Shown: one piece after another, positions 2,994-54,554 of the stretch
How the letters are laid out: every line of letters begins with the position of its first letter
How positions within the stretch are numbered: the first letter of the stretch is position 1
Source: Myxococcales bacterium
GTDB taxonomy: Bacteria; Myxococcota_A; Polyangia; Polyangiales; Ga0077539
Length of the DNA: 64,000 nucleotides
Assembly (NCBI GenBank): GCA_016793325.1
Contig: JAEUKI010000056.1
Coordinates: forward strand, 4,221-68,220
Direction: 5' to 3'
Notes under the pieces: generated by a model
Seen by the model: only the letters and a program-made list of their open reading frames with translations
Told to the model about the DNA's origin: nothing
Database searches by the model: none
Position numbers and translations under genes: made by a program

Positions 2994-4730
2994 ATGCTCC
3001 CTGCGCGTCCGAGAGTCTCGGTCAATCTTCGGCCCGGCGTGATCACGCCCGGAAGCGCGTTCGACGCGCTCGTTCGTCTCGATTCGCGCCGCGTGATCCC
3101 GGTGAAGCGCGTCGACTGTCGGCTCCGCGGCGAGGTGCTCGTCATGCAGGCCAACGGGATGTTCGCGACCCAGCGCATCGTCGAGCTCGCGGCGTCAGCG
3201 ACGCCGAAGACGCTGCCGGCTGGACCCTCGGAGCTGCGCGTGCGCTTCGCGATCCCGCCCAGCGCGCCGCCTTCGTATCGAGGAACGACGATTCGCGCCG
3301 CGTATACGCTCACGGTCTACGTGGATATTCCCTGGTGGATCGACCGCGAGAGCACGTTCGTGATCCCCGTCAGCGCGCCGCCAGCGTCGGTGACGGACCG
3401 GGGCGCGAAGTCGTTCGCGCGCGTTCAGGACTCGGGCCTTCGAGTCGAGTGCGCGCTCGATCGAACGGTCGTCGCGCCCGGCGGAGTCCTCGCGGGACGA
3501 CTCGCGTTCTTCGGCGTCGAAGCGGCAGGCCTCCGCGCCGTTCGGGTTCGACTTCGCTGCCTCGAGCGCTGGGGCGCCGGCACAATCGACGGTCCCAACT
3601 ACCTCGTCGAGATCCCGATCGAGCGCCAGGTCGACGGCGATGCGCACACGTTTCGCATGCGGATCCCCGAGGACGCGGTGCCCGCGTTCGATACGCCGAC
3701 GGGGTGCATGTGGTGGCAGCTCGACGTCGAGGGCGACACGAAGGGCCGAGCCACCGCGACGCTGCTCGATGTCCCGATCCAGGTCGTCGCGCCCGAGACG
3801 AGCGGGCTCGATTTTTTCTCGGAGCTCCCGCTCATCGGCGACCAGCGTCGCGCCGAGATGCTCGCGCGGATCGCGCGCCGAACGGGGCTGCGTCACGAGG
3901 TCGAGACCGATCGACTCGTTGGGCAATTCGGCGGCGTTTCGCTCTCGATCGAGCGCGTCGCCGCGACCGGTCACAACCGCGTCGAGCTGCGATGGCGCCC
4001 GCTCGGGATCGCTCTCTCCGTCGGCCCCGCGCGGTGGAACGACGCGATCTCGCGCTACGAGATCACCGTGGGGTTGCCGATGTTCGACGAGGCGTACCAG
4101 GTTCGCGGGCGAGAAGCGCGGCAGGTCCTCGCGGTCGTGACGCCGTTTGCGCACGCCGACGGGCTTCTTCACAGCCTTCGAAACTGCGCGATCCGCGACG
4201 ACGGAGCGTCATTGGTCGCTCCATCGCAGCCCGACGAAGAGTCGTTGATGCGGCTCGCGTACAGCGCAGCGAGCCTCGCGGAGCGAGTGCGCATCGGCAT
4301 CGAAGGGATGCCGCCGCCGCAGCACTTCGCGGAGCACGCGGATGCGTGGCGCTCGCTCGCGGGGCGGTTTCGTGGGCAATTTCGCCAGGGAGACTGCGCG
4401 ATGCACCGCCTCGAGCTCTTCAACGAACGGCTCGACGTCGAGCACGTGTGGGACGACGCGAGGGTGCGCGAGACCATCGTGCGAGCGCACTTCGACCCGC
4501 CGCTCGAAGCGCCGCCGGACCGATCGCGCCCCGAGTCCGTCCGCGCGGATTGGCGCGAGGCGCTCGACGCCCTCGACGCGCAGGGAGGTCGCTGGAGCGT
4601 GACGAAGACCGCGCTCGAAGTGCGAGTCGCGGCCGTGCGCGACGCGGTCGACGCCGAGCGCTGGATCGACGTCGTCGCGTCGACGGCCCGCACGCTTCAG
4701 GGCCGCCGCAACACAGGTCCATTTCGCTGA
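2994..4730 (+). CDS. Hypothetical protein (578 aa), two-domain, possibly arrestin-like/Spo0M-like
   Basis: Long ORF with a coherent, non-Arg-biased composition and no competing frame. No recognisable catalytic motif. Confidence 0.55.
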   Translation: MLPARPRVSVNLRPGVITPGSAFDALVRLDSRRVIPVKRVDCRLRGEVLVMQANGMFATQRIVELAASATPKTLPAGPSELRVRFAIPPSAPPSYRGTTIRAAYTLTVYVDIPWWIDRESTFVIPVSAPPASVTDRGAKSFARVQDSGLRVECALDRTVVAPGGVLAGRLAFFGVEAAGLRAVRVRLRCLERWGAGTIDGPNYLVEIPIERQVDGDAHTFRMRIPEDAVPAFDTPTGCMWWQLDVEGDTKGRATATLLDVPIQVVAPETSGLDFFSELPLIGDQRRAEMLARIARRTGLRHEVETDRLVGQFGGVSLSIERVAATGHNRVELRWRPLGIALSVGPARWNDAISRYEITVGLPMFDEAYQVRGREARQVLAVVTPFAHADGLLHSLRNCAIRDDGASLVAPSQPDEESLMRLAYSAASLAERVRIGIEGMPPPQHFAEHADAWRSLAGRFRGQFRQGDCAMHRLELFNERLDVEHVWDDARVRETIVRAHFDPPLEAPPDRSRPESVRADWREALDALDAQGGRWSVTKTALEVRVAAVRDAVDAERWIDVVASTARTLQGRRNTGPFR

Positions 4731-4764
4731 GCCTGCTCCGCGTGGCACACTCCGGTCTCTCGTC

Positions 4765-5346
4765 GTGAACGCTGCGGAGTACTCGATCGTTGTTGCGTCG
4801 GCGACGGATGTGCGCTCGCTCGCCGAACACTGGCAACGCGAGGTCGTGGACAACGGTCGCGACGGGCTGTGGTTTTCGCCGTACGACCCGGACGAAGACG
4901 CAAAGCCCATCACCGACGAGCGAATCGCGCAGATCTCTGCGGCGATCGAGCGCCCGTTGACCGAGCCGATGTGGCAGCGCGTGTGGACGCTGCGCCATCG
5001 AGACGCGCCCGAGCGCGTGCTCGGATCGTTGTCGCTGCACGGGGGGCGCATCGTCTCCGAGCTTCACCGATGCAGCTTGGGGATGGGCATCGAGCCCGAA
5101 CATCGAGGCCGTCGCAACGGGACCGCGCTCGTCGAGGCGGCGCTCGCGTGGGCGCGCGCGACGGCGCAGCTCTCGTGGGTCGACCTCGGTGTTTTCGCTG
5201 GAAATCACCGCGCAAAAGCGCTCTACGCGCGCGCCGGATTCGTGGTCGTGGGCGAGCGTCGAGACGCGTTTCGGGTGCGCGGCGTGAAGATCACGGACGT
5301 CACGATGACGCTCTGCCTCGACGAGGCGCGCGGGGCGACTACGTAG
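4765..5346 (+). CDS. GNAT family N-acetyltransferase
   Basis: GTG start. Motifs RRNGTALVEAALAWAR..KALYARAGF (acetyl-CoA binding motifs A/B). Confidence 0.75.
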   Translation: MNAAEYSIVVASATDVRSLAEHWQREVVDNGRDGLWFSPYDPDEDAKPITDERIAQISAAIERPLTEPMWQRVWTLRHRDAPERVLGSLSLHGGRIVSELHRCSLGMGIEPEHRGRRNGTALVEAALAWARATAQLSWVDLGVFAGNHRAKALYARAGFVVVGERRDAFRVRGVKITDVTMTLCLDEARGATT

Positions 5347-7940: not shown

Positions 7941-8799
7941 GAGTCGCTTCGGGGGCGCGCTCCTTCGCGGCTTCGCGCTGCGCGAGGATCTCCGCGAGTC
8001 GCTTCTTCGCGAAGCGCGTCATGGCTCCCACGCCGACGACGCTCGCGATCACGATTACGACCGAGCCCACCTTCGCGGCGACCGAAGGCGTCTGCTCTCC
8101 GCGCACGACGGCCGCGGCGCTCTGGATGATGCTCCCGAGGTACGCATGAAAACATGTGATCGGAAGCAAGCCGAGCCACGTCCCGAGCGCGAAGTGCCGA
8201 TAGCGCACCGGCGTCGTCGCCGCGGCGAACGAGAAGATGTTCTGCGGGATGACCGGTGTCATGCGCGCGAGCCAGACGGCGCGGAGGCCGTCGTCACGAA
8301 GCAGCTCGCCGAGGGCGTCCCACGTGGGATTTCCCTCGACGCGACGGCGAACGACGTTTTGCAGCACCGTGCGGCCGAGGCCGAACGCGACCGACGCCGC
8401 GAGCGTCCCCGCAGGCGACGCGACGAGCGCGCCGACGATGGGTCCGTACACGAAGCCCGCGAGCACATGAAACGGCGCCTTGGGCGCAGCCACCGCGCCG
8501 CCGAGGCCGTACACGAGGAGGTAGAGCGCGACGCCGCGCGCGCCGCTCGATCGCATATACTCGATCAACGCGAGCAGCGCCGCTTGCACCGCGGGCTGAC
8601 GGAGCGCGATGAACGGCGCGAGGAGAAACAGTGCGAGGCCGAGCGTCGCGAGCGGCCTTCGCGTGAGCGCGATCCACACGGGCGCGAGGGTTCGTCGGAT
8701 CCAACCGGAGTTCAAAGGTCGGCGCGAGTGTACTCGAAGCGTCTCGAGAACCGACGTACGCTCTCGTTGTCGTAGCGCCCACCGAGCGGCGAGATGCAC
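7918..8799 (-). CDS. TVP38/TMEM64 (DedA-related) family membrane protein; start codon uncertain
   Basis: Multi-TM profile with family-typical GFVYGPIVGALVASPAGTLAASVAFGLGR and ARMTPVIPQNIFSFAAATT segments. Confidence 0.65.
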   Translation of the reverse strand: MHLAARWALRQRERTSVLETLRVHSRRPLNSGWIRRTLAPVWIALTRRPLATLGLALFLLAPFIALRQPAVQAALLALIEYMRSSGARGVALYLLVYGLGGAVAAPKAPFHVLAGFVYGPIVGALVASPAGTLAASVAFGLGRTVLQNVVRRRVEGNPTWDALGELLRDDGLRAVWLARMTPVIPQNIFSFAAATTPVRYRHFALGTWLGLLPITCFHAYLGSIIQSAAAVVRGEQTPSVAAKVGSVVIVIASVVGVGAMTRFAKKRLAEILAQREAAKERAPEATPTSEPTG

Positions 8800-9777
8800 A
8801 CGATGTCCGACCTACGCAGCCGACGACGAACGCGACGCGCGATGGAGATCGCCGCGGTGATCGCAGCGTCCCTCGCGCTGCACTCGATGGGGCTCGTCGC
8901 GATCGGCGTGCGTGAGCTCCCGTCGCGAGAGCTCATGTTTCGCGGCGAAGACGGCGAAAACGGCCGACGCGGCGCGGGGAGCATCGCGGAGTTCGCCGTC
9001 GAGTCACCGCCGTTGCCCACGGTCGCGTCGCGTCCTTCGGCGCCCGCTGCGCCCGTCGTCGAGCAACAACCCGAGGCGCCCATCGTCGTGCAGCAACCGA
9101 GACCCGCTCCGCGGCGCGCTCCGCCCACGGTGGCATCGACGCCGACGCAAGCGCCGACGCCCGTCGCGACGCCCGCACCACCGCAAGAAACAACGCCCGA
9201 GCCCGCGCCAACGGCGGGGGGCCAACGAACCGGGAGCGTCGGTGAACAGCGCGGGATGCTCCCCTCGGCCGCGCGTTGTCGCGACGCCGTCGCAGGAACG
9301 TGGCGAGCGCACAAGTACAACCCCGGCAACCGCGACTGGGTGATCTTCACGCTGCGGATCAACCGCCTGCCAGACAACCGCCTTCAGGGCACGATTCGCG
9401 CGCGCAGTTGGACTGGCGACGGCACCCGCGCCCAGCCTCCCGGACGCTGTGGAAACGCCCCCGAAGATCTCGACTTTGCGGTGGTCATGCCCGGTCAAGG
9501 ATCGATCGTCGGCCGGGCGGTTTCGTTCTCCGCGATCGAGTATCGAATCGAACGCGTCTACTGCCGTCGTGCGAACATGTCGTACAGCCCCGACGCGTTC
9601 TCGGGACAGATCGACGAGGCTCGACAGGAGTTTCAATCGGTGAACGATGACGGTCATCGAGACCGTAACGCGCCGTACGTGTTTCGACGCATCGGTTGCC
9701 TCGCGGGCGACGCCCTGCCCGCGGCCAGCGCGAGCGCTGTGACGCCGGCCGCGGACGGCGGTAGCGTCGCGCGATGA
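8794..9777 (+). CDS. Hypothetical membrane-anchored protein with Pro-rich linker
   Basis: N-terminal TM (MEIAAVIAASLALHSMGLVAIG), Pro/Ala-rich spacer, conserved-looking C-terminal globular region. ATGA overlap with the next gene. Confidence 0.55.
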   Translation: MHTMSDLRSRRRTRRAMEIAAVIAASLALHSMGLVAIGVRELPSRELMFRGEDGENGRRGAGSIAEFAVESPPLPTVASRPSAPAAPVVEQQPEAPIVVQQPRPAPRRAPPTVASTPTQAPTPVATPAPPQETTPEPAPTAGGQRTGSVGEQRGMLPSAARCRDAVAGTWRAHKYNPGNRDWVIFTLRINRLPDNRLQGTIRARSWTGDGTRAQPPGRCGNAPEDLDFAVVMPGQGSIVGRAVSFSAIEYRIERVYCRRANMSYSPDAFSGQIDEARQEFQSVNDDGHRDRNAPYVFRRIGCLAGDALPAASASAVTPAADGGSVAR

Positions 9778-19850: not shown

Positions 19851-20911
19851 AAGCGTCGCTCGTGTTCGATCGTCGGAGCCGACATCAAGACCTCGCGGCG
19901 TCTCGCGCGCTGAGCATCGTCGTTGTCTCGATCGCCGTCGTGCTCGCGGCGCGAACGACGTTTGCGCAAGCCGACGCGGGCACGCGCGGTGACGCGGCCA
20001 TTCGCGGCGATGCGGGACCTTCCGCCGACGCGAGCGCGAGCGCAGTTGCCGTCGACCCGCGCGCCGCCGAGGCTCGCGGCGCGTTCGAACGAGGCGTCGC
20101 GTTGTCGCAAGAAGAGCGGTGGGGCGAGGCGCTCGAAGAGTTCCGACGCTCGATGGAGCTCGTCGAGCGGCCGAGCACGGCGTTCAACATGGCGACGACG
20201 CTCGTTCGGTTGGGGCGTCACGTCGAAGCGATCCGCGCGTTCGAGCGGTACGTGCAGCTCGCCGACCCCGTCGCCGACGCCGCGCGCTTCGCGAGCGTGC
20301 AAGAGCAACTCGTCGCCGAGCGAGCCATCGTCGCCACGGTGCAGCTCACGGTCGAACCTGCGACTGCGGAGCTCCGGGTCGACGGTCGCTCGACGAGCGA
20401 GACGGGCGTGAGTCGAACGCTGACGCTCGACCCTGGGTCGCACACGATCGAGCTCAGCGCGCCGCGGCATCGGGCGTTTTCGACTGCGTTTCGGCTCACC
20501 AACGGCGAGCGGCGCGCGATCGACGCGAGGCTCGAAGCGGTCACCCTCGCGACGCTCGAGGTCAGCCCGAGCGACCCGTCTGCGATCGTCACGGTCGACG
20601 GCGCGCCGTTCGGGCGCGGGCCTCGGCAGGTCGCCGCAGGAGCACACGAAATCAACGTCACGGCGGTCGGCTACGACCGCTATCGTCGTCGCGTCACGCT
20701 CGAGCCCGAGAGCACGCTGCGCGTGGACGCGGCGCTGCAACGGACGGTCGTCGTGAGGCCCCTTCACGCGAACCCAGTGTTCTGGGCGGTGGTCGGCGGC
20801 GGCGTGGCCGTCGTCGCGACCGCGGTGATCCTCGGCGTCGCGCTCACGACGCAGGCGCCCGAGCTAGGCACGTCCACTGGGATCGTGATTCAGGGCTTGT
20901 CCGACCGCTGA
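19844..20911 (+). CDS. Secreted TPR-like + PEGA-domain protein with C-terminal TM anchor
   Basis: Overlaps kinase stop (operon). Signal peptide IVVVSIAVVLAARTTFAQA. PEGA-like beta-sandwich repeats (LTLDPGSHTIELSAPRHRAF; GAHEINVTAVGYDRYRRRVTLEPES). Terminal TM VFWAVVGGGVAVVATAVILGVAL. Confidence 0.6.
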   Translation: MVEASLVFDRRSRHQDLAASRALSIVVVSIAVVLAARTTFAQADAGTRGDAAIRGDAGPSADASASAVAVDPRAAEARGAFERGVALSQEERWGEALEEFRRSMELVERPSTAFNMATTLVRLGRHVEAIRAFERYVQLADPVADAARFASVQEQLVAERAIVATVQLTVEPATAELRVDGRSTSETGVSRTLTLDPGSHTIELSAPRHRAFSTAFRLTNGERRAIDARLEAVTLATLEVSPSDPSAIVTVDGAPFGRGPRQVAAGAHEINVTAVGYDRYRRRVTLEPESTLRVDAALQRTVVVRPLHANPVFWAVVGGGVAVVATAVILGVALTTQAPELGTSTGIVIQGLSDR

Positions 20912-22665
20912 GCGAGGTTGGCGCGAACGCGCGCGACTTCGCGCGTGAAGATCCGCCGCAGGATCGCCGAAGCGCAGCCGTACGTGCTCTCGACGCCGAA
21001 GTAGCTGAGCGACTTCGACAAGAGCTCTTGTCGCCGCGAGTACGGCGTATCCGACGCGTAGTGAACGACGCCGAGCTCGAACGGAACGGCGTTGGACAGG
21101 TGCACGATCGTTCCGCTCGGATGGCGATCAGGAAACGCGAGCTCGAACACCGCGCTCAGGTACGGGCCCGCCTCCATCTCGAGCACGGTGTATCCGTCGC
21201 GGTAGTAGTCCGCCATGTACGCGCGGTTCTGCAAGAACGCCGAGCGCACCGTGAGCGCCTTTTGTCCGTCGAGCACCGTGCCTCGACGCATGAACGGCTC
21301 GAGGTCCCCCGCGCTGAACGCGTTGCGAAACAAGTACCGATTGCGCGAGTGCTCGTCGAACACCGTGTCCGAGAGCATTACGTCGCCGACGCGACCGTTG
21401 AGCGTCGCAGCCTTGCCCATGACGTACACGCCAAGCATGTCGCCCGCGCCCTGAACGAGCCGCGTGAGCAAATGGTACGCGGCCATCCCGAGGGGATAGT
21501 CGATGTTGAGAACGACCGCGTCGCTCTGAGCGAGCAGCTCGATCCCGTCGACCTTCACGCGTGGATCGAGGCGGTCAGGCCGGAGCCTCGCGAGGTCGAC
21601 GAACTGCGCGCTGACGTCGACCTTTCCGGGGCTCGGAACGGTGCGAACGCCCGACTGCGCGTCGTAGTCCTGCACTTGCTGCAACAGCGCGTGCGTGTCC
21701 ACGTCGGACTCGTGGAGCCACGCGCGCAACAGGTAGTACGACAGGTTCGAGAGCGTGTCTTCGTCGTTGCTCTCGCGGGCGTTCTCGACGACCTCGGCGA
21801 GCCGCTCGGGGTTCTTTCGGCGCACGAAATCAACGATCGCGTCGCGGTGGGCGCGCGCGTAGCCACCACACAAATTCAAGAGCGAGTGCGTGTTCGACGA
21901 AACGAAGTAGAGCGGCGGTCGCTTCGGCGCCGCCTCCCGCACGTACGCGGGCTCGATCCCGCTCCACCAACGATGCGCGGCGCGCTGGTAGCCCGTGTAC
22001 GTGGTCGAGAGCACCCGCAGGCGTAGGTCGCTCTCTCGCGAGACGATGGCGCGAAGGGCGCGGTCGATTCCGTCTCCGAGGGCAGCGCGGAGGGTCGCCA
22101 CGCCCGAGGCGTCGAGGCCCAAGAGCCCCGACAGCTCCGCGTCGTCGACAAAGACCTCTTCGCCGTCCGTCGTGCGCGCGATGGCGCGGCCCAACGACGT
22201 GTTGGCGAGTCGGTCGTGGAGCTTGTTCCATTCGATCTGATACGCCGTCACGATGGGGACGAGGTCGTCGAGGTCGCTGGTGCTCGTGAGAAACACAGCG
22301 AGCGTCTTGTCTCCGTCGTAGCGGAGAGGCCGTCGTCGACCCCGCGTTCGTTCTTCGCGCCAGTCGCGCACCTCGAGGCCGATCGCCTCGAACTGTTCGT
22401 GCGATTGTCCGAGGACGATCCGCTCGATCGACGCCATGCACGCGGGCAAGCGCGCGGCGGCGTACGCAAACGCCGCGACGTCGGGGACGACGTCTTGTGC
22501 GCCGAGGTGCAGCGTCGAGTCGCTGAACGCGTGCGCCTCTTCGAACGCCCGCACGCGCACCTCGCCCGTCGAGCGCAAGAGCGAATAGTACGTTCGGATA
22601 TACAGGTCGACGCCGTCGCTCGCGCCGTCGAGCGTGGTGTGGGGGAGTCTCTTGCCGTCGGTCAT
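20890..22665 (-). CDS. Conserved hypothetical protein (591 aa). C-terminal region weakly resembles the phosphorylase (PNP/UDP) superfamily
   Basis: Long ORF with balanced composition. ...YVMGKAATLNGRVGDVMLSDTVFDEH resembles the nucleoside-phosphorylase GSxG..GDVVxS pattern. Unverified. Confidence 0.55.
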   Translation of the reverse strand: MTDGKRLPHTTLDGASDGVDLYIRTYYSLLRSTGEVRVRAFEEAHAFSDSTLHLGAQDVVPDVAAFAYAAARLPACMASIERIVLGQSHEQFEAIGLEVRDWREERTRGRRRPLRYDGDKTLAVFLTSTSDLDDLVPIVTAYQIEWNKLHDRLANTSLGRAIARTTDGEEVFVDDAELSGLLGLDASGVATLRAALGDGIDRALRAIVSRESDLRLRVLSTTYTGYQRAAHRWWSGIEPAYVREAAPKRPPLYFVSSNTHSLLNLCGGYARAHRDAIVDFVRRKNPERLAEVVENARESNDEDTLSNLSYYLLRAWLHESDVDTHALLQQVQDYDAQSGVRTVPSPGKVDVSAQFVDLARLRPDRLDPRVKVDGIELLAQSDAVVLNIDYPLGMAAYHLLTRLVQGAGDMLGVYVMGKAATLNGRVGDVMLSDTVFDEHSRNRYLFRNAFSAGDLEPFMRRGTVLDGQKALTVRSAFLQNRAYMADYYRDGYTVLEMEAGPYLSAVFELAFPDRHPSGTIVHLSNAVPFELGVVHYASDTPYSRRQELLSKSLSYFGVESTYGCASAILRRIFTREVARVRANLAQRSDKP

Positions 22666-22742
22666 CGTGGGAGTAGGTCGGCGTAGGCTCGCAGAAATAC
22701 CGCAAGAAACACAACGACTCGAAAACCGTGCGGTCCCGGTCG

Positions 22743-22758
22743 TGACAGAGAACTGTCA
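22743..22758. promoter_or_regulatory. Perfect palindrome TGACAGagaaCTGTCA (third TGACAG half-site at 22814-22819) upstream of the TM2 gene
   Basis: Seen directly in the 195-bp intergenic region. SD aaggaagaaggaag precedes ATG 22860. Confidence 0.35.
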
Positions 22759-22859
22759 GCAAGTCGGAAACTTCGGCATCGTTGTGGTAGGTGAAGGGCA
22801 AGCACGGCGGCTGTGACAGTTACAGCAGCGCACGGGCGCTCTAAGGAAGAAGGAAGACG

Positions 22860-23303
22860 ATGGGATTCGATCCAAACGGCGGGCAAGGCGGACAAGGCGG
22901 ACAAGGCGGATGGCCGGGAGCTCCCCAGCAAGGCGGAGCGTGGGGCGGCCAGCCGCAACAGCCCGGCGCGCCATTTCAACCGCAACAACCGCAAGCAGGG
23001 TTCGGCGCGCCGCAGCCGGGCTTCGGCGCTCCGCCGCAAGCCGGCATGGCGCCGTACGGCGGCGCTCCGATGATGGGCGGCGCCGCGGGCGGCGCGAAGC
23101 CGAAGCAGACGATGCTGCTCCTCGCGATCCTGCCGTTTCTCTTCGGCTTCAGCGGGATCCACAGCTTCTACGCAGGCCACACGGTCAAGGGAATCATCCA
23201 GTTCTTGACCTTCGGCGGCTGCGGAATCTGGCAGCTCATCGACATCATCGGGATCTTCAACGGCTCGTACCGCGACGCCAACGGCCAGCCGCTCGCGCCG
23301 TAA
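22860..23303 (+). CDS. TM2-domain membrane protein with Gly/Gln/Pro-rich low-complexity N-terminus
   Basis: N-terminal GGQGGQGGQGGWPGAPQQGGAWGGQPQQPG.. C-terminal TM2 domain (LLLAILPFLFGFSGIHSFYAGHTVKGIIQFLTFGGCGIWQLIDIIGIF). Confidence 0.8.
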   Translation: MGFDPNGGQGGQGGQGGWPGAPQQGGAWGGQPQQPGAPFQPQQPQAGFGAPQPGFGAPPQAGMAPYGGAPMMGGAAGGAKPKQTMLLLAILPFLFGFSGIHSFYAGHTVKGIIQFLTFGGCGIWQLIDIIGIFNGSYRDANGQPLAP

Positions 23304-23398
23304 TTCTCGCGATGCGCTCGTAGGGGCTGTGGAGTCCAGTGGTGGGGGCTGGACGAACGCGCTCGCGCGGTGTGTTCTCACGCAGTGAGCGCGGTGCG

Positions 23399-23932
23399 AT
23401 GAGCGACGACGAGCGAGACACTCGAAGCGGTCCGCGCTCGCCTCGGTGGTTCGCCGCGGGCGCGCTCGGGCTCGGGCTGCTCGTCGGCGTCGCGCTCTAC
23501 TCGGGCGTCGCCACGAGCGGCGGCGCGACGTGCCCATCGCGCTGGCTCTTCGACGCCCCCTGCGCCGGCTGTGGGATGACTCGCGCGTTCGAAGGGCTGC
23601 TTCACGGCGACCTCGGCTACGCGCTTCGCGCGAACGTCGTTTCGCCGGTGCTGTTCACGCTCGCCGCGATCGTCGCGCTCGTGTTCGGCGCGCAGCTCGC
23701 GACCGGACGCGACCTCTACCGCGCGCTCGCTGCGCGGAGGCTCGTGCGCGGCGGCGTATCAGCGCTGCTCCTCGCGCTCGTATTGATTGCGTGGGTTAGT
23801 AATCAAATGCGCCACAAGCGCGGCGAAGGTCCACTTCACCTCCGCACGTGGCATCACGAGCACGGGCGAGCCCCGCTCGTCGATCTGCCGGGGGGCGAGC
23901 GGCAGGGTCAATCGCGGCCGGTCGCGCACTGA
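23399..23932 (+). CDS. DUF2752-domain membrane protein
   Basis: Start MSDDERD. Signature CPSRWLFDAPCAGCGMTRAF (CPxxxxxxxPCPGCGxTRA of DUF2752) followed by TM helices. Confidence 0.75.
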   Translation: MSDDERDTRSGPRSPRWFAAGALGLGLLVGVALYSGVATSGGATCPSRWLFDAPCAGCGMTRAFEGLLHGDLGYALRANVVSPVLFTLAAIVALVFGAQLATGRDLYRALAARRLVRGGVSALLLALVLIAWVSNQMRHKRGEGPLHLRTWHHEHGRAPLVDLPGGERQGQSRPVAH

Positions 23933-25803
23933 CAGAGCGAGCGTCGCGCGAGCATCGCGCACTGGCCTGCGCGGAGCCGCGCGACGTCGTCCGCGGCGGG
24001 TCCGGGGCCGAGGCGAGCGACCTGTCCGACGACGGTCTGCAGCTCGTCACATCGATCGCTCGTTCGAAGGAGCACCCTCGCCCGCTGCGTGGCGTCGAGC
24101 AGCGCGATCCGCTCGCGCGCGAGGCGTCCAGCGCGGCGACGAGCGTCGCTCGTCGGGCCGAACACCGTCTCTTCAGCGAGCACGCGCGCCGCGGTGCGCG
24201 AGCCCGCGAAGGACGCAGCGTGCAACAACGTCTCTGCGGCGCTCGCGGCGCTGTCGTCGGCGAGCGCCTTCGTGAGCGCGCGCACGAGCGGCTCGTCTTC
24301 GACGAGGCTCGGGTCTCGCGAGACGGCGTCGGCGAACGTGGCGACCGCTTCGCTGTTCTTTCGATCGGCGCTGAGCAGCAGCGCGAGCTGATACGCGACG
24401 AGCCCGTCGTCGTCCGCGTGGGGTCGACGCGCGCGCCGGCCGCGGAGCATTTCGATCGCCGCCGTGGTGTCGCCACGAGCGGCGACCCTGAGGGCGCGGG
24501 CGACCTCGCTCTCGCCACGGAGCGCGCTCATTCGGCGCGCCATCGGGAGCGCGCGGCCCTTGGGCGCGTTGCTGTGCGTGAGCGAGTACACGACGCTGTA
24601 GACGCCCGAGAGCAGGACGCCGACCGTCACGAGCAGCACCGGGAGCAGCACGACGAGCGGCACGTAGCCGAAGCGCCCCAACCAATACACAGGGAGGCCA
24701 GCGATCTTCGACGGCGGAACGAACCCGGTTTGCGTCGCGCTCCGCGGTTCAGCTCGGTCTTGGACGGTCGGCGCCGTGTTGGACACCGTGGGCGGCGCGG
24801 TGAGGTCGCTCGCGGACGCGAGCACCGTGTTGTGGTGCTGCATCGCTGACGCAGGCTCGGTCGACGCGTATGCGTACGCCGATCGTGCGACGGCGTCGGC
24901 GAGCGCGACGTCGATCGCTTCCATCGCGTCGGCGACGGAGGCGTACCGCTCGATGGGGCTCTTCGCGAGGACGCGATCGAAGACGCCGTCGATCGCTGGC
25001 GGGAGCTCGGGCGCGAACGACGTCGCGCGAGGAATCGCGCCATTGACCTGCAAATCGAGCAGGTCGATGAGGTTCTTGTGGTCGAACGGCTTTCGCCCTG
25101 CGAGCAGCTCGAACGCGAGGATGCCGAACGCGTACTGATCCGCTGCGGCGTCGACGCGGCGGCCGAGCGCTTGTTCGGGGGACATGTAGTGCGGCGTTCC
25201 GAAGATCACGCCGGTCTGCGTGAGCGGCTTCTCGCTGTCGGTCGCGCTCGTCATGCGCGCGATGCCGAAGTCGATGATCTTCACGAGCTCGTCGGCGCCA
25301 GGTCGATCGACGACGAGGATGTTCTCGGGCTTGAGGTCGCGGTGAACGATCCCGAGGTTGTGCGCGCGCGTGAGGGCCGACGCGATTTGTCGCAGCAATT
25401 TCAGGGCGCGAAGCAGCGAGACTCGCTCGTCGCTCGCGGTCACTTCGCGGAGCGAGCGCCCCTCGATGTACTCCATCGCGAGGAAGAACGTCCCGTCTTG
25501 GAGCTGACCGAAGTCCGTCGCTGCGACGACGTTTTCGTGGTCGAGCTGGGCCATGGCGCGCGCTTCGCGCTCGAACCGCGCCCGCACCTCGGGGTTGGCG
25601 TGCATGTCCGCGTGCAGCGTCTTGATCGCGACCTTCTTGTGCAGCGCGACGTGCTCCGCGACGTAGACGGCGCCCATCCCGCCTTCGCCGATGCGCTCGA
25701 GCACGCGAAAGCGCCCGGCGACGACGGCGCCGACGAGCGGGTCGGGCGCGGGCGCAGCGAGCGCGTTCGAGGGACCAACGGTCTGTGCGTCGCGATCAGT
25801 CAT
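23908..25803 (-). CDS. Ser/Thr protein kinase with TM helix and C-terminal TPR-like helical domain
   Basis: Start MTDRDAQ. GEGGMGAVY, VAIK, HRDLKPEN, DFG, SPE motifs. TM LVVLLPVLLVTVGVLLSGVY. Confidence 0.85.
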   Translation of the reverse strand: MTDRDAQTVGPSNALAAPAPDPLVGAVVAGRFRVLERIGEGGMGAVYVAEHVALHKKVAIKTLHADMHANPEVRARFEREARAMAQLDHENVVAATDFGQLQDGTFFLAMEYIEGRSLREVTASDERVSLLRALKLLRQIASALTRAHNLGIVHRDLKPENILVVDRPGADELVKIIDFGIARMTSATDSEKPLTQTGVIFGTPHYMSPEQALGRRVDAAADQYAFGILAFELLAGRKPFDHKNLIDLLDLQVNGAIPRATSFAPELPPAIDGVFDRVLAKSPIERYASVADAMEAIDVALADAVARSAYAYASTEPASAMQHHNTVLASASDLTAPPTVSNTAPTVQDRAEPRSATQTGFVPPSKIAGLPVYWLGRFGYVPLVVLLPVLLVTVGVLLSGVYSVVYSLTHSNAPKGRALPMARRMSALRGESEVARALRVAARGDTTAAIEMLRGRRARRPHADDDGLVAYQLALLLSADRKNSEAVATFADAVSRDPSLVEDEPLVRALTKALADDSAASAAETLLHAASFAGSRTAARVLAEETVFGPTSDARRRAGRLARERIALLDATQRARVLLRTSDRCDELQTVVGQVARLGPGPAADDVARLRAGQCAMLARRSLCQCATGRD

Positions 25804-25861
25804 ACGGAGGCTTTGCAAGCGGGACTCGGTACCAAGGAAACGCCTGTCGGCGCTCGTTCAT

Positions 25862-26839
25862 TCAGCGAAACCAGCCCCAGCCTCGGCGGTGTCCACGACC
25901 GCGACCGCGCCGGTGGTGGTGATGATCGTCATCGTCATCGTGACCGCCGACGATGACCACGCCGGGAATCGCAGGCGCGATCACCACCGACGGCGCGACG
26001 ATCTGAGCGTGTACGCCAACGCCAACCACCGGCGTCCCGACCACCGCGCCCCGACCGCGAGCGACGACAACGGCGGACGGCAACACTGGGACGACTGCGA
26101 CGTGCGACACGACGACGCCGCGATGCCGATGCCCGCGAATTTCGACATCGGGCACGGCCACCACGACGTCTGGCGGAAGCGCGACGCCCGCGTGCGCGAC
26201 CCACACTTCGCCTTCGAGCCGCGGCTGCACGGGAACCGCGCGCCCCTCGATCTGGACGTTCACCGAAGGAACACGCACCTCCGCGGGCGGCACGGGTCGG
26301 CCATCGTGATCGTAGAAGTAGAACGCGACGTCACCGCCGCGCGCTGCGACGGTTTCGACTGCGTATTCGCCGACGACTTGCACGCGCCCGCCGTGCTGCG
26401 GCGCCGGGAGCGCCGTGGTCGCCGTCACCGCGATGGGCGGCGCGACGACCTCGACGGCCGGCGCGCTCTCGGTCGCCTTCACGCTCACTTCGACCGGATA
26501 CGTCCCCGCGGAAATTCCCGCGACGCGTCCGACGTACCGGTGTTCGCGCTCGTCGTAGGTCATCGCGACGGGCACGGGATCTTCATCGGGCCGACGAATC
26601 GACACCGTCACCGAGTGCGCTTGCAGCGGTTGGCCCTGCGCGTCGCGGACGTACGCGACGATGCGACCGTCCGCTTGAGGCGCGACCTCCGCAGAGATCG
26701 CTGCGCCCGCAGCTATGGTCCCGCCGTGTTCACCGACGGCCTCGGTGCGCGGCTCCGAGCTGACGGTCGGCTGCCGCGGTGATTCACCGCACACGCGGAG
26801 CGCGGCGGCGGCGAGCAGTGCGAGCGAGATCGTCTTCAT
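25862..26839 (-). CDS. Hypothetical secreted lipoprotein with His/Asp-rich C-terminal tail (possible metal-binding)
   Basis: Signal/lipobox MKTISLALLAAAALRVCG. C-terminus HDDDDDHHHHRRGRGRGHRRGWGWFR. Confidence 0.5.
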   Translation of the reverse strand: MKTISLALLAAAALRVCGESPRQPTVSSEPRTEAVGEHGGTIAAGAAISAEVAPQADGRIVAYVRDAQGQPLQAHSVTVSIRRPDEDPVPVAMTYDEREHRYVGRVAGISAGTYPVEVSVKATESAPAVEVVAPPIAVTATTALPAPQHGGRVQVVGEYAVETVAARGGDVAFYFYDHDGRPVPPAEVRVPSVNVQIEGRAVPVQPRLEGEVWVAHAGVALPPDVVVAVPDVEIRGHRHRGVVVSHVAVVPVLPSAVVVARGRGAVVGTPVVGVGVHAQIVAPSVVIAPAIPGVVIVGGHDDDDDHHHHRRGRGRGHRRGWGWFR

Positions 26840-52644: not shown

Positions 52645-53607
52645 ATGACGTATTGGGGTCCGGGAACTGTCCCGCCCGGCTACATGCTCGCCCCCGACGG
52701 AACGCTCGTTCCCGTCGTTCCAGGCGCACCGGTTCAGCACCATCCCGTGCCGCCCGCCGCGCCGTATGGCGCCGTGGTCGCCGTGCCCTCGCCTGTGCCG
52801 TACGGCGCGGTGCCCTACGGGTATGTGCCGCAGCCGGCGCCTGTCCCCGTGATGGTGCCGCAGCCGATGCCGCAGATGGTGGCGGTGCAGCCCGTGGTCG
52901 TCGCGACCCACGTCGTGGGCAACGTGGCCGTCGCGCAAGGGCACGCATACGCGGGCTACGTGCAGCAAACCGCGTACGTTCAAGCGCCGATCGCGCAGCC
53001 CATGCAACCGGTCCCGACGCACGCGACCGCGCCCGGAGCGCCGCAGGCGTACGCCCCAGGGTGGACGCACCCGCAGCCCGCTCAACACGGCGGATCCCAG
53101 GACAACGCCCTCGCGATCGCGCGCGAAGACAGCCTTTCGGCGCGCGATCGATACCAGGGCGAAGCTGGCTCCGTGGGAGCGCTCTCGCTCGCCACGAGCG
53201 GATTGATCCTCGCGACGGCGCTCGCGACGGTGACGTTCTTCGTCGTTCCCGTGGGCGCCGTGCTCGCGTCCGCGGCGGTCGCGAGCGGCGTGACGGGGGG
53301 GCTCGGATTGTGGCTTCTTCGTCAGCGAAAGAAGCTCCGCGGCAAGGTCGACCTCGACCCAGAGATTCAAGTGCGGCTCCTCGACCTCGCGACGAAGAAG
53401 CGCGGACGATTGACGGTCACCACGACGGCACAAGGTCTCGGGCTCACCCTCGATGAAGCAGAACGCGCCCTCCAGGCGATGGCGGCATCGCACTACGTCG
53501 ACGTCGAGCTCGACCCAGACGTGGGCGTGGTGACGTACGTGTTTCGTGAGCTCGTCCCCACCCCGCCGCAGCTGCCCGCATCTACCACCGAGGCTCCCAC
53601 TCGATGA
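52645..53607 (+). CDS. Pro-rich membrane protein (N-terminal PxP/Y-rich region, TM, C-terminal globular domain)
   Basis: Start MTYWGPG. Low-complexity VP/PY-rich N-terminus. TM LILATALATVTFFVVPVGAVLASAAVASGV. ATGA-coupled to the downstream TM2 gene. Confidence 0.55.
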   Translation: MTYWGPGTVPPGYMLAPDGTLVPVVPGAPVQHHPVPPAAPYGAVVAVPSPVPYGAVPYGYVPQPAPVPVMVPQPMPQMVAVQPVVVATHVVGNVAVAQGHAYAGYVQQTAYVQAPIAQPMQPVPTHATAPGAPQAYAPGWTHPQPAQHGGSQDNALAIAREDSLSARDRYQGEAGSVGALSLATSGLILATALATVTFFVVPVGAVLASAAVASGVTGGLGLWLLRQRKKLRGKVDLDPEIQVRLLDLATKKRGRLTVTTTAQGLGLTLDEAERALQAMAASHYVDVELDPDVGVVTYVFRELVPTPPQLPASTTEAPTR

Positions 53608-54554
53608 ACAACGACGACCACAGCACCGGGACGTCGAACACCATGACTGCTGAAGCGAGCGATCCGCTGGCGGACGCGCTTCGCAACGACAAGCCGCCGC
53701 CCGCTGCCGCGCACTCGACCCCGCCGCCGAGCGAGCGCTCTTCGCCGCCCGCGCCGCTCGCGCCCGTGGGCGCGTGGCCGCCGCCGAACCCGACCGCCGC
53801 CAACGCGCCAGTGTATGCGCAGCCGAACGCGCACGACGCGCCCCGCGCGCCGCAGCCGACGCCCGTGTACGCACACCCCGCGTACGGCGCTCCGGCCGCT
53901 GCGTTTCCGCAAGCGCCGGCGCCCGATCCCTACAAACCACCGCAGTACCAGCAGCCGTATCCACCGCCGCCCGCGCAGCACGCGCCGAGCCCGTACGGCC
54001 ACTACCAACAGCCTCAGTACCAGCACCCACAATATCAACAGCCGCAGTACCCACCGCAGCCGCAGTATCCGCAGCCTCAGTACGCACCGCAGCCTCCGTA
54101 CGCGCAGCCATACGCGCAGCCATACGCGCAGCCGCAACCAGCGCCGGTCGCGCCGCAGTTGCTGCCGTACGCGCCCGCGCCGATGCCTGCGGCGTACACA
54201 GCGCCCGCGCAGACGTACGCGATCGTTCCGGCGCCGCAGATGATGCCAATGGTCGTGCAGCAGCCGATGATGATGGTCGCGCCGGCGCCGCAGATGGTTC
54301 AGTACGGGCAGGTCGCGCAGACGGGCATCGTCCGCGTCGGAAACGCCAACCGCCTCGTGTTCGCGGTGCTCGCGTTTCTTCTGGGATTCATCGGCTTGCA
54401 CAAGTTTTATCAGGGCAAGCCTGTGTGGGGATTGATCTACCTGCTCACGTCGTGGACGGGCGTTCCTGCGATCGTGTCGGTGATCGAAGGGCTCGTGGCG
54501 CTGTTCCAGACGGACGCTGCGTTCGACGCGGACAACAACTTGCGCGCGATCTGA
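53604..54554 (+). CDS. TM2-domain membrane protein with long Pro/Gln/Tyr-rich (PQY repeat) N-terminus
   Basis: ~200 aa of QPQYQ/PYAQPYAQ repeats, then TM2 domain (RLVFAVLAFLLGFIGLHKFYQGKPVWGLIYLLTSWTGVPAIVSVIEGLVALF). Confidence 0.75.
   Translation: MNNDDHSTGTSNTMTAEASDPLADALRNDKPPPAAAHSTPPPSERSSPPAPLAPVGAWPPPNPTAANAPVYAQPNAHDAPRAPQPTPVYAHPAYGAPAAAFPQAPAPDPYKPPQYQQPYPPPPAQHAPSPYGHYQQPQYQHPQYQQPQYPPQPQYPQPQYAPQPPYAQPYAQPYAQPQPAPVAPQLLPYAPAPMPAAYTAPAQTYAIVPAPQMMPMVVQQPMMMVAPAPQMVQYGQVAQTGIVRVGNANRLVFAVLAFLLGFIGLHKFYQGKPVWGLIYLLTSWTGVPAIVSVIEGLVALFQTDAAFDADNNLRAI

Follow-up and report, generated by a model that had tools for sequence, protein, structure and literature searches.

Bacterial TM2 proteins (PF05154; COG2314 'YozV'; 'NINE protein') are membrane hairpins with a G-x-H-x-F-Y-x-G loop, a T-x-GG-C-G-I-W motif and a membrane Asp, preceded by a variable N-terminal tail, a zinc ribbon or a GYF_2 domain. 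The TM2 domain also occurs in animals, in TM2D1/2/3 (beta-amyloid-binding protein; almondex, amaretto and biscotti in Drosophila). These carry a signal peptide, have their N-domain outside the cell and the DRF loop in the cytosol, act on Notch/gamma-secretase and, in flies, act together as three paralogues (PMC8714088). No known function for any bacterial TM2 member was found in the searchable literature, nor any paper mentioning DUF2752 or PF10825. Here we describe a TM2-domain gene and the DUF2752 gene that follows it in a 64,000-nucleotide stretch of a Myxococcales contig (JAEUKI010000056.1, positions 4,221 to 68,220), hereafter the window. Both are catalogued families; the strength and breadth of their pairing and the pattern of partners are not described in the searchable literature. 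The TM2–DUF2752 linkage is real and ancient, and the locus itself is an unremarkable and somewhat reduced example of a module that is widespread.

Linkage was assessed from both sides. The TM2-anchored sample comprised 80 metagenome loci picked only by the motif [LF][LI]TxGG[CL]G[IV]W, eight of which ended too near the TM2 gene to judge. Among the remaining 72, DUF2752 adjoined TM2 in 65 (90%), directly downstream on the same strand in 61 and on the opposite strand in four. The median gap was about −4 nt and 85% of gaps were 30 nt or less, both values being estimates with heuristically chosen start codons. Gaps this small or negative are the pattern of translational coupling. The window pair fits the same-strand TM2-then-DUF2752 order with a gap of 95 nt, in which no terminator-like site was found.

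The DUF2752-anchored sample was drawn at one genome per species with the motif PC[PA]GCGMT, and 277 relatives were confirmed among the first 599 pattern matches. Counts refer to the best 80 of at least 277 confirmed relatives, taken as 10-kb loci. All open reading frames (ORFs) in these loci were translated and searched for neighbour families with locally built, iterated hidden Markov models (HMMs). The loci came from Acidobacteriota, Bacillota, Bacteroidota, Actinomycetota, Planctomycetota, Myxococcota, Armatimonadota, Verrucomicrobiota and others. TM2 adjoined DUF2752 in 21 of the 80, and every TM2 match within them adjoined a DUF2752. Independent precomputed Pfam annotation of a further contig (L170) likewise places a GYF_2+TM2 gene in overlap with DUF2752. 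Cassettes in three loci (L010, L001 and L005) hold two to three TM2 domains per DUF2752, which recalls the three fly TM2D paralogues. Segatella hominis (L010) has two TM2-TM2-DUF2752 cassettes within 5 kb (4177–5288 and 8257–9396).

A preliminary description of the locus, made from its letters alone, had proposed a small membrane-embedded two-gene system, an idea to be given up if comparative genomics found no conserved linkage and the low-complexity region proved unconserved even among close relatives. Linkage was instead found across phyla from both anchoring directions (65/72 and 21/80), hence our statement that it is real and ancient; both families are membrane proteins, and the idea holds. 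That the two genes are neighbours by chance, through local gene order and without functional connection, is scarcely credible. Such an accident would account for the roughly 10% of TM2 loci and 35% of DUF2752 loci without a partner, but same-strand adjacency recurs in at least seven phyla amid otherwise unrelated neighbours. With few copies of each family per genome, adjacency by chance would be expected at about 0.1%.

We consider it probable, from gene order and protein sequence, that the pair is a conserved, co-transcribed and usually translationally coupled operon whose two inner-membrane products function jointly, most likely in a physical complex. TM2 hairpins, often with several TM2 domains per cassette, would assemble with DUF2752 in roughly equal amounts. 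Several observations weigh against this interpretation. Seven of the 72 judgeable TM2 loci (~10%) have no adjacent DUF2752 despite more than 1.1 kb of downstream sequence, and 28 of the 80 DUF2752 loci (~35%) have none of three partner families (TM2 and two described below) adjacent. In one clade (L171–L174), DUF2752 follows LptE and a TP_methylase gene and has no small hairpin partner. No natural TM2–DUF2752 fusion was found among the matches listed. The partner HMMs were built and iterated on the same loci and only representatives were checked against Pfam, and the topology given below for DUF2752 has a simple charge count as its basis. Finally, the module may be present in reduced form in the window, where a double-TM2 gene is missing and the loop reads HSF. 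The finding overturns nothing. It turns two anonymous families into a testable pair, with about 90% coupling in this TM2 subtype, further hairpin partners and no solved DUF2752 relative, and so makes two long-standing families experimentally approachable.

The TM2 assignment made at the outset was borne out by Pfam (PF05154, residues 83–130, E = 4e-14, 53 bits against a gathering cut-off of 27.9). The protein is a 100% match to P0156, and NCBI calls the identical protein 'NINE protein'; no NCBIfam model matched either member of the pair. AlphaFold2 placed the hairpin helices at residues 82–95/100–104 and 108–118/122–133 with moderate confidence (predicted local distance difference test, pLDDT, 60–71). 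Residues G99, F103, G106, T117, G119, G120, G122, W124 and D128 mark invariant or near-invariant columns. The loop motif is HSFYAG (23153–23170, TM2 residues 99–104) in the window clade and (D/H)RFY-G in most relatives. Neither DRF nor HRF was found in the window protein or its clade, a difference from nearly all other TM2 proteins, animal ones included, in which the loop has an Arg.

The N-terminus probably lies on the cytoplasmic side, given that TM2 homologues lack signal peptides and often open with a GYF_2 domain or zinc ribbon. On this view the cytoplasm would hold both hairpin ends and the disordered tail, whereas the short H(S/R)FY-G loop would probably face outward, opposite to the orientation annotated for animal TM2D proteins. 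The TM2 domain is common to both groups. The eukaryotic amyloid-beta-binding context invoked in the preliminary description nevertheless does not transfer, as TM2D proteins combine a signal peptide with an extracellular N-domain and DRF in the loop, whereas the window protein has HSF and no signal peptide. A biochemical activity of the bacterial domain could still guide work on the animal proteins, where TM2D is of interest for Notch signalling and Alzheimer risk.

The second protein matched DUF2752 (PF10825) over residues 45–92 (E = 3.7e-14, 53 bits against a gathering cut-off of 27) with all invariant residues present, which upholds its original assignment. It is identical to NCBI P0001, from a Myxococcales metagenome-assembled genome (MAG). 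The mechanical ORF starts at a GTG (23339); the ATG at 23399 is backed by the 177-aa NCBI protein and by relatives. The signature had been read as CPxxxxxxxPCPGCGxTRA. The motif is present, but the window protein has PCAGCG, the quoted PCPGCG being the family consensus. This replacement of the first Pro of CPGCG by Ala is a feature of the window clade, as is a basic C-terminal tail of 35 residues absent from most members. Across 61 diverse homologues C45, C55, C58, G59 and R62 are invariant, T61 is present in at least 90%, and H69 is frequent. The cysteine knuckle and third Cys are kept even in strict anaerobes.

AlphaFold2 modelled DUF2752 with good confidence (pLDDT 86.7; predicted template modelling score 0.76), with membrane helices at residues 15–35, 82–102 and 114–140. 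The C-x9-C-x2-C-G-x-T-R motif falls between the first two, in a loop of short helices where C55-x2-C58 lies just ahead of helix 60–68. No solved structural relative was found. Many metagenomic members are only about 100 aa long with two helices, and the core is thus helix–Cys loop–helix. In about 80% of 130 proteins, Lys and Arg in the N-flank and the segment after helix 2 outweigh those in the Cys loop and C-terminus. By the positive-inside rule, we infer a cytoplasmic N-terminus and an outward-facing Cys loop. DUF2752 would thus be a two- or three-helix protein presenting a Cys-x9-Cys-x2-Cys-Gly knuckle, then Thr-Arg and usually His, on the outward face of the membrane. Domain fusions were considered and rejected, all DUF2752 matches listed being single-domain. 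Planctomycete ORFs with long N-termini held no extra Pfam domain and may be over-extended.

The knuckle resembles the CPxCG knuckles of rubredoxins and zinc ribbons, in that CPGCG is followed by a helix, and a further Cys and a frequent His could serve as third and fourth ligands. It differs in being a single knuckle, placed between membrane helices and probably outside the cytoplasm. The zinc ribbon of ribosomal protein eL37 gave a non-significant profile match (E = 0.21). Together, the CPxCG-type knuckle and third Cys suggest that metal is bound, or thiol chemistry carried out, on the outer side close to a cysteine of the partner protein.

Other partners of DUF2752 have such a cysteine as well. 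Neighbour clustering found DUF4234 adjoining DUF2752 in about 20 of the 80 loci, and DUF4190, often preceded by DUF4870, in 11. One of TM2, DUF4234 or DUF4190 adjoined DUF2752 in 52 of 80, and Pfam confirmed representatives of each partner family. Among the other 28, unclassified small membrane ORFs adjoin DUF2752 in several (L018, L077, L035 and L037). In a further contig with precomputed Pfam annotation (L175), a zinc-ribbon membrane protein follows DUF2752. Within helix 2, the T-[C]-G-G-[C]-G stretch contains one or more Cys in all 73 DUF2752-linked TM2 proteins. The corresponding cysteines lie in TCGIY in DUF4234, in CC or CCC of helix 1 in DUF4190, and in GC of the membrane region in DUF4870. 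What these otherwise different partners share is thus a conserved cysteine within the membrane. In a Clostridia MAG (L072, 4463–5717), a single DUF2752 has DUF4234 upstream and TM2 downstream on one strand, an arrangement that argues for a generic role of DUF2752.

DUF2752 is on these grounds not specific to TM2. Within the interpretation judged probable above, we propose that it acts as a dedicated assembly, stabilising or maturation subunit for such small hairpin proteins; its cysteine knuckle would bind a metal or engage in thiol chemistry with the partner's cysteine. As a more tentative extension, it may be the common, dedicated partner of a whole class of cysteine-bearing hairpins (TM2, DUF4234, DUF4190/DUF4870 and some unclassified proteins), with its extracytoplasmic three-Cys knuckle completing a metal site with, or modifying, the partner's intramembrane cysteine. 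If true, this would amount to a widespread and undescribed bacterial membrane system and give a first biochemical handle on the TM2 domain.

The same features could be those of an enzyme, which we regard as rather unlikely: a membrane thiol-disulfide oxidoreductase or cysteine-modifying enzyme (e.g. an S-acyl transferase) acting on the cysteines that TM2, DUF4234 and DUF4190 proteins hold within the membrane. A C-x2-C at a helix start (55–58 before helix 60–68), a third invariant Cys and an invariant Arg would suit such an activity, as would the probably extracytoplasmic Cys loop and the conserved membrane-helix Cys in every partner family. The L072 DUF2752 sits beside two partner families, as a multi-substrate enzyme would. 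DsbB, VKOR and CcdA/DsbD are small helical membrane proteins whose C-x2-C lies within or close to an extracytoplasmic loop, and DUF2752 is alike in both respects, its loop placement being predicted. It differs from them in having three conserved cysteines rather than two or four, and no quinone or thioredoxin partner is evident. No fold or sequence relation of DUF2752 to DsbB, VKOR or CcdA/DsbD was detected.

Eight loci (L009, L024, L031, L046, L051, L060, L013 and L045) hold a DUF4870–DUF4190–DUF2752 array. YidD, a putative membrane-protein insertion efficiency factor, lies directly downstream in six of them (L009, L024, L031, L046, L051 and L060; Thermoanaerobaculia / Acidobacteriota). This position hints at a link to membrane protein biogenesis.

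The distribution of the pair bears on the kind of system it could be. DUF2752 gave one marginal tblastn match in 50,697 phage records and one in 72,556 plasmids, and a single confirmed locus in 2.9 million viral contigs. PADLOC anti-phage defence models matched neither TM2 nor DUF2752 nor the neighbouring DUF6909. Genes flanking the pair vary by lineage and are housekeeping genes (ATP synthase epsilon, TruB, riboflavin synthesis, the dnaA-dnaN region, dnaN/recF and YidD). Near-absence from mobile elements, lack of a PADLOC match and varied housekeeping neighbours fit a chromosomal membrane function rather than defence or lysis, and the operon may serve chromosomal housekeeping at the membrane.

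These data make a pairing of membrane-damaging effector and antidote (holin/antiholin-like or toxin/immunity), employed in competition, abortive infection or phage lysis, very unlikely. As a small hydrophobic hairpin whose Asp is embedded in the membrane, TM2 would be a plausible effector; TM2 alone matches four PHROG families of unknown function, and the overlapping two-gene layout resembles toxin–antitoxin pairs. Besides the near-absence of DUF2752 from phage, plasmid and viral collections and the housekeeping surroundings, the stable synteny within the Myxococcales clade, where the TM2 protein is 91–99% identical, speaks against such a role.

The TM2 protein begins with a low-complexity tail that the preliminary description likened to yeast-prion or FG-like segments. 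Its N-terminus reads MGFDPNGGQGGQGGQGGWPGAPQQ...QPQQPGAPFQPQQPQAGFGAPQPGFGAP and contains both strings quoted there (GGQGGQGGQGG and PQQPQ). Gly (26), Pro (15), Gln (14) and Ala (12) make up 82% of residues 1–82 (32%, 18%, 17% and 15%, respectively; entropy 2.73 bits), next to one Asn (1%), no Ser, one Tyr and three charged residues. AlphaFold2 gave pLDDT below 50 and no secondary structure for residues 7–78. The resemblance is therefore one of composition and predicted disorder, with nothing specific to prion or FG behaviour. Like yeast prion domains and FG-nucleoporins, the tail is of low complexity, rich in Gln and Gly, and predicted disordered, with short FG-containing repeats. It differs in being Pro/Ala-rich with almost no Asn, Ser or Tyr, in its membrane anchoring and in its unconserved sequence. 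FG-repeat domains have many FG motifs, and only two GFG units were found here and four in P0157. The high Pro content argues against amyloid.

Conservation of the tail among relatives extends to composition and approximate length and does not extend to sequence: relatives' tails span 60–180 residues with similar compositional bias and cannot be aligned, and the copy number of GFGAPQP varies (two in the window protein, four in P0157). Tails of GYGPPGG type occur on DUF4190 partners in other Myxococcota. Elsewhere in the window (53604–54554, +), a second TM2 protein of 316 aa (Pfam E = 7e-14) carries a Pro/Gln/Tyr tail of 245 residues; its helix-2 motif contains no Cys, and no DUF2752 gene adjoins it. 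As this unpaired protein has the longer tail, tails are a general habit of these TM2 proteins and not specific to the pair. The tail is a lineage-typical cytoplasmic extension, predicted to be disordered. A Pro-rich membrane protein ORF ends at 53607, its stop overlapping the start of the second TM2 gene (53604).

We judge it highly improbable that the tail is the functional centre, as a prion-like, amyloid-forming or phase-separating clustering domain to which DUF2752 is incidental. Its composition is conserved across the subfamily while repeat number varies, it is predicted disordered, and actinobacterial homologues have a GYF_2 domain at the same position; GYF domains bind proline-rich peptides. 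A sequence this rich in Pro and Gly and poor in Asn, Ser and Tyr is, however, a poor amyloid former. Many DUF2752-linked TM2 proteins have no tail, or a zinc ribbon instead, and the unpaired protein has one. DUF2752 linkage tracks the TM2 domain, not the tail.

Coordinates at the window locus are collected in Table 1. The surroundings have a G+C content of about 68–72%. The order DUF6909, TM2, DUF2752 and kinase is kept in four related contigs (L166, L005, L001 and L002), and the 25-nt overlap of the DUF2752 and kinase 3' ends (23908–23932) recurs in L005 and L001. Within this clade the TM2 protein is conserved far above DUF2752: amino-acid identity to the window is 99% against 85% in L166 and 91% against about 66–67% in L001, with DUF2752 at 71% in L005 and 66% in L002. 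DUF6909 is 96% identical to its L005 and 90% to its L001 counterpart. It was considered as a further module member and rejected, since it adjoins the TM2/DUF2752 pair only in the close clade.

Table 1. Features of the TM2–DUF2752 locus (window positions).
Feature	Position	Strand	Description
DUF6909 gene, divergent neighbour	20890–22665	−	591 aa; Pfam E = 1e-203
Perfect 16-bp palindrome TGACAGAGAACTGTCA	22743–22758	.	TGACAG-AGAA-CTGTCA; candidate operator for a dimeric DNA-binding protein
Nearly invariant non-coding block, palindrome plus GCAAGTCGGAAACTnCGGCATCGTTGTGGTAGGTGAAG	22743–22800	.	Four-way alignment, almost every column identical
Small inverted repeat CTGTGACAG	22811–22819	.	Holds third TGACAG half-site, 22814–22819
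Purine-rich ribosome-binding region AAGGAAGAAGGAAG	22843–22856	+	Ends 3 nt before the TM2 start codon
TM2-domain gene	22860–23303	+	147 aa; Pfam TM2 match
Gly/Pro/Gln/Ala tail	22860–23105	+	Codons 1–82; two GFGAPQP repeats; predicted disordered
TM2 domain, two-helix hairpin	23106–23249	+	Residues 83–130; HSFYAG loop, GGCGIW (Cys121), membrane-embedded Asp128
TM2/DUF2752 spacer	23304–23398	+	95 nt
DUF2752 gene	23399–23932	+	177 aa; Pfam DUF2752 match; three membrane helices modelled
DUF2752 signature CPSRWLFDAPCAGCGMTRA	23531–23587	+	Codons 45–63; C-x9-C-x2-C-G-M-T-R
Ser/Thr protein kinase gene, convergent neighbour	23908–25818	−	3' end overlaps the DUF2752 3' end

A double-TM2 gene (200–216 aa) stands between the single-TM2 gene and DUF2752 in L001, L002, L005 and L086 (L005 3259–3861; L001 5235–5885) and begins MGFDPN, as the first TM2 gene does. 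It is absent from the window and its closest relative L166, which have only a spacer of 95–98 nt at this place. This suggests a deletion of the double-TM2 gene in the sub-lineage of the window and L166.

TM2 and DUF6909 diverge from a 194-bp intergenic region (22666–22859). A perfect palindrome and a third half-site had been reported in the promoter; both were confirmed, the palindrome lying upstream of the pair, 102 nt before the TM2 start and 78 nt before that of DUF6909. It occurs once in 64 kb against 0.01 copies expected, and no other copy was found in the window even with three mismatches. The TGACAG hexamer is not enriched in the window (nine copies against 17 expected), yet three of the nine lie within 77 bp. 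The palindrome is kept in L166, L005 and L001 with a variable last base, and CTGTGACAG in L166 and L005, with one mismatch in L001. The ribosome-binding core GGAAGAAGG is invariant in four relatives. Identity over the whole intergenic region (0.75 with L001 and 0.83 with L005) exceeds that at third codon positions of the flanking genes (0.51–0.71), and the conserved block is therefore under selection.

Among 176 loci the palindrome is confined to the close clade, one chance-level match excepted, and we take it as a putative clade-specific operator. The dedicated regulation proposed for the pair is plausible in this light. It is not assignable, as the promoter region is common to the divergent DUF6909 gene and the palindrome is found only in the close clade. 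An Akkermansiaceae MAG (L037, 4873–4887) has TGACAG-N4-CTGTC just upstream of DUF2752; about 0.5 such sites would be expected by chance across the loci.

A consensus scan of the upstream region found no sigma-70 promoter, and inspection by eye for sigma-54 or ECF-type promoters gave poor matches only. A riboswitch or small RNA in the upstream block was rejected: a permissive Rfam search of 22400–24100 returned sub-threshold matches only, and the fold z-score was 0.13. The best Rfam match, osmY RNA (22810–22862, +; 20.6 bits against 46.9 required; E = 0.074), extends over the ribosome-binding site as well as the third half-site and probably reflects chance. A small ORF in the conserved block was likewise rejected, as substitutions between relatives fall at second codon positions and are non-synonymous.

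Beyond the kinase gene lies a 325-aa ORF (25862–26839, −) with an Asp/His/Arg-rich C-terminal tail (HDDDDDHHHHRRGRGRGHRRGWGW) and a weak, sub-threshold YtkA-like match. It may encode a metal-binding envelope protein.

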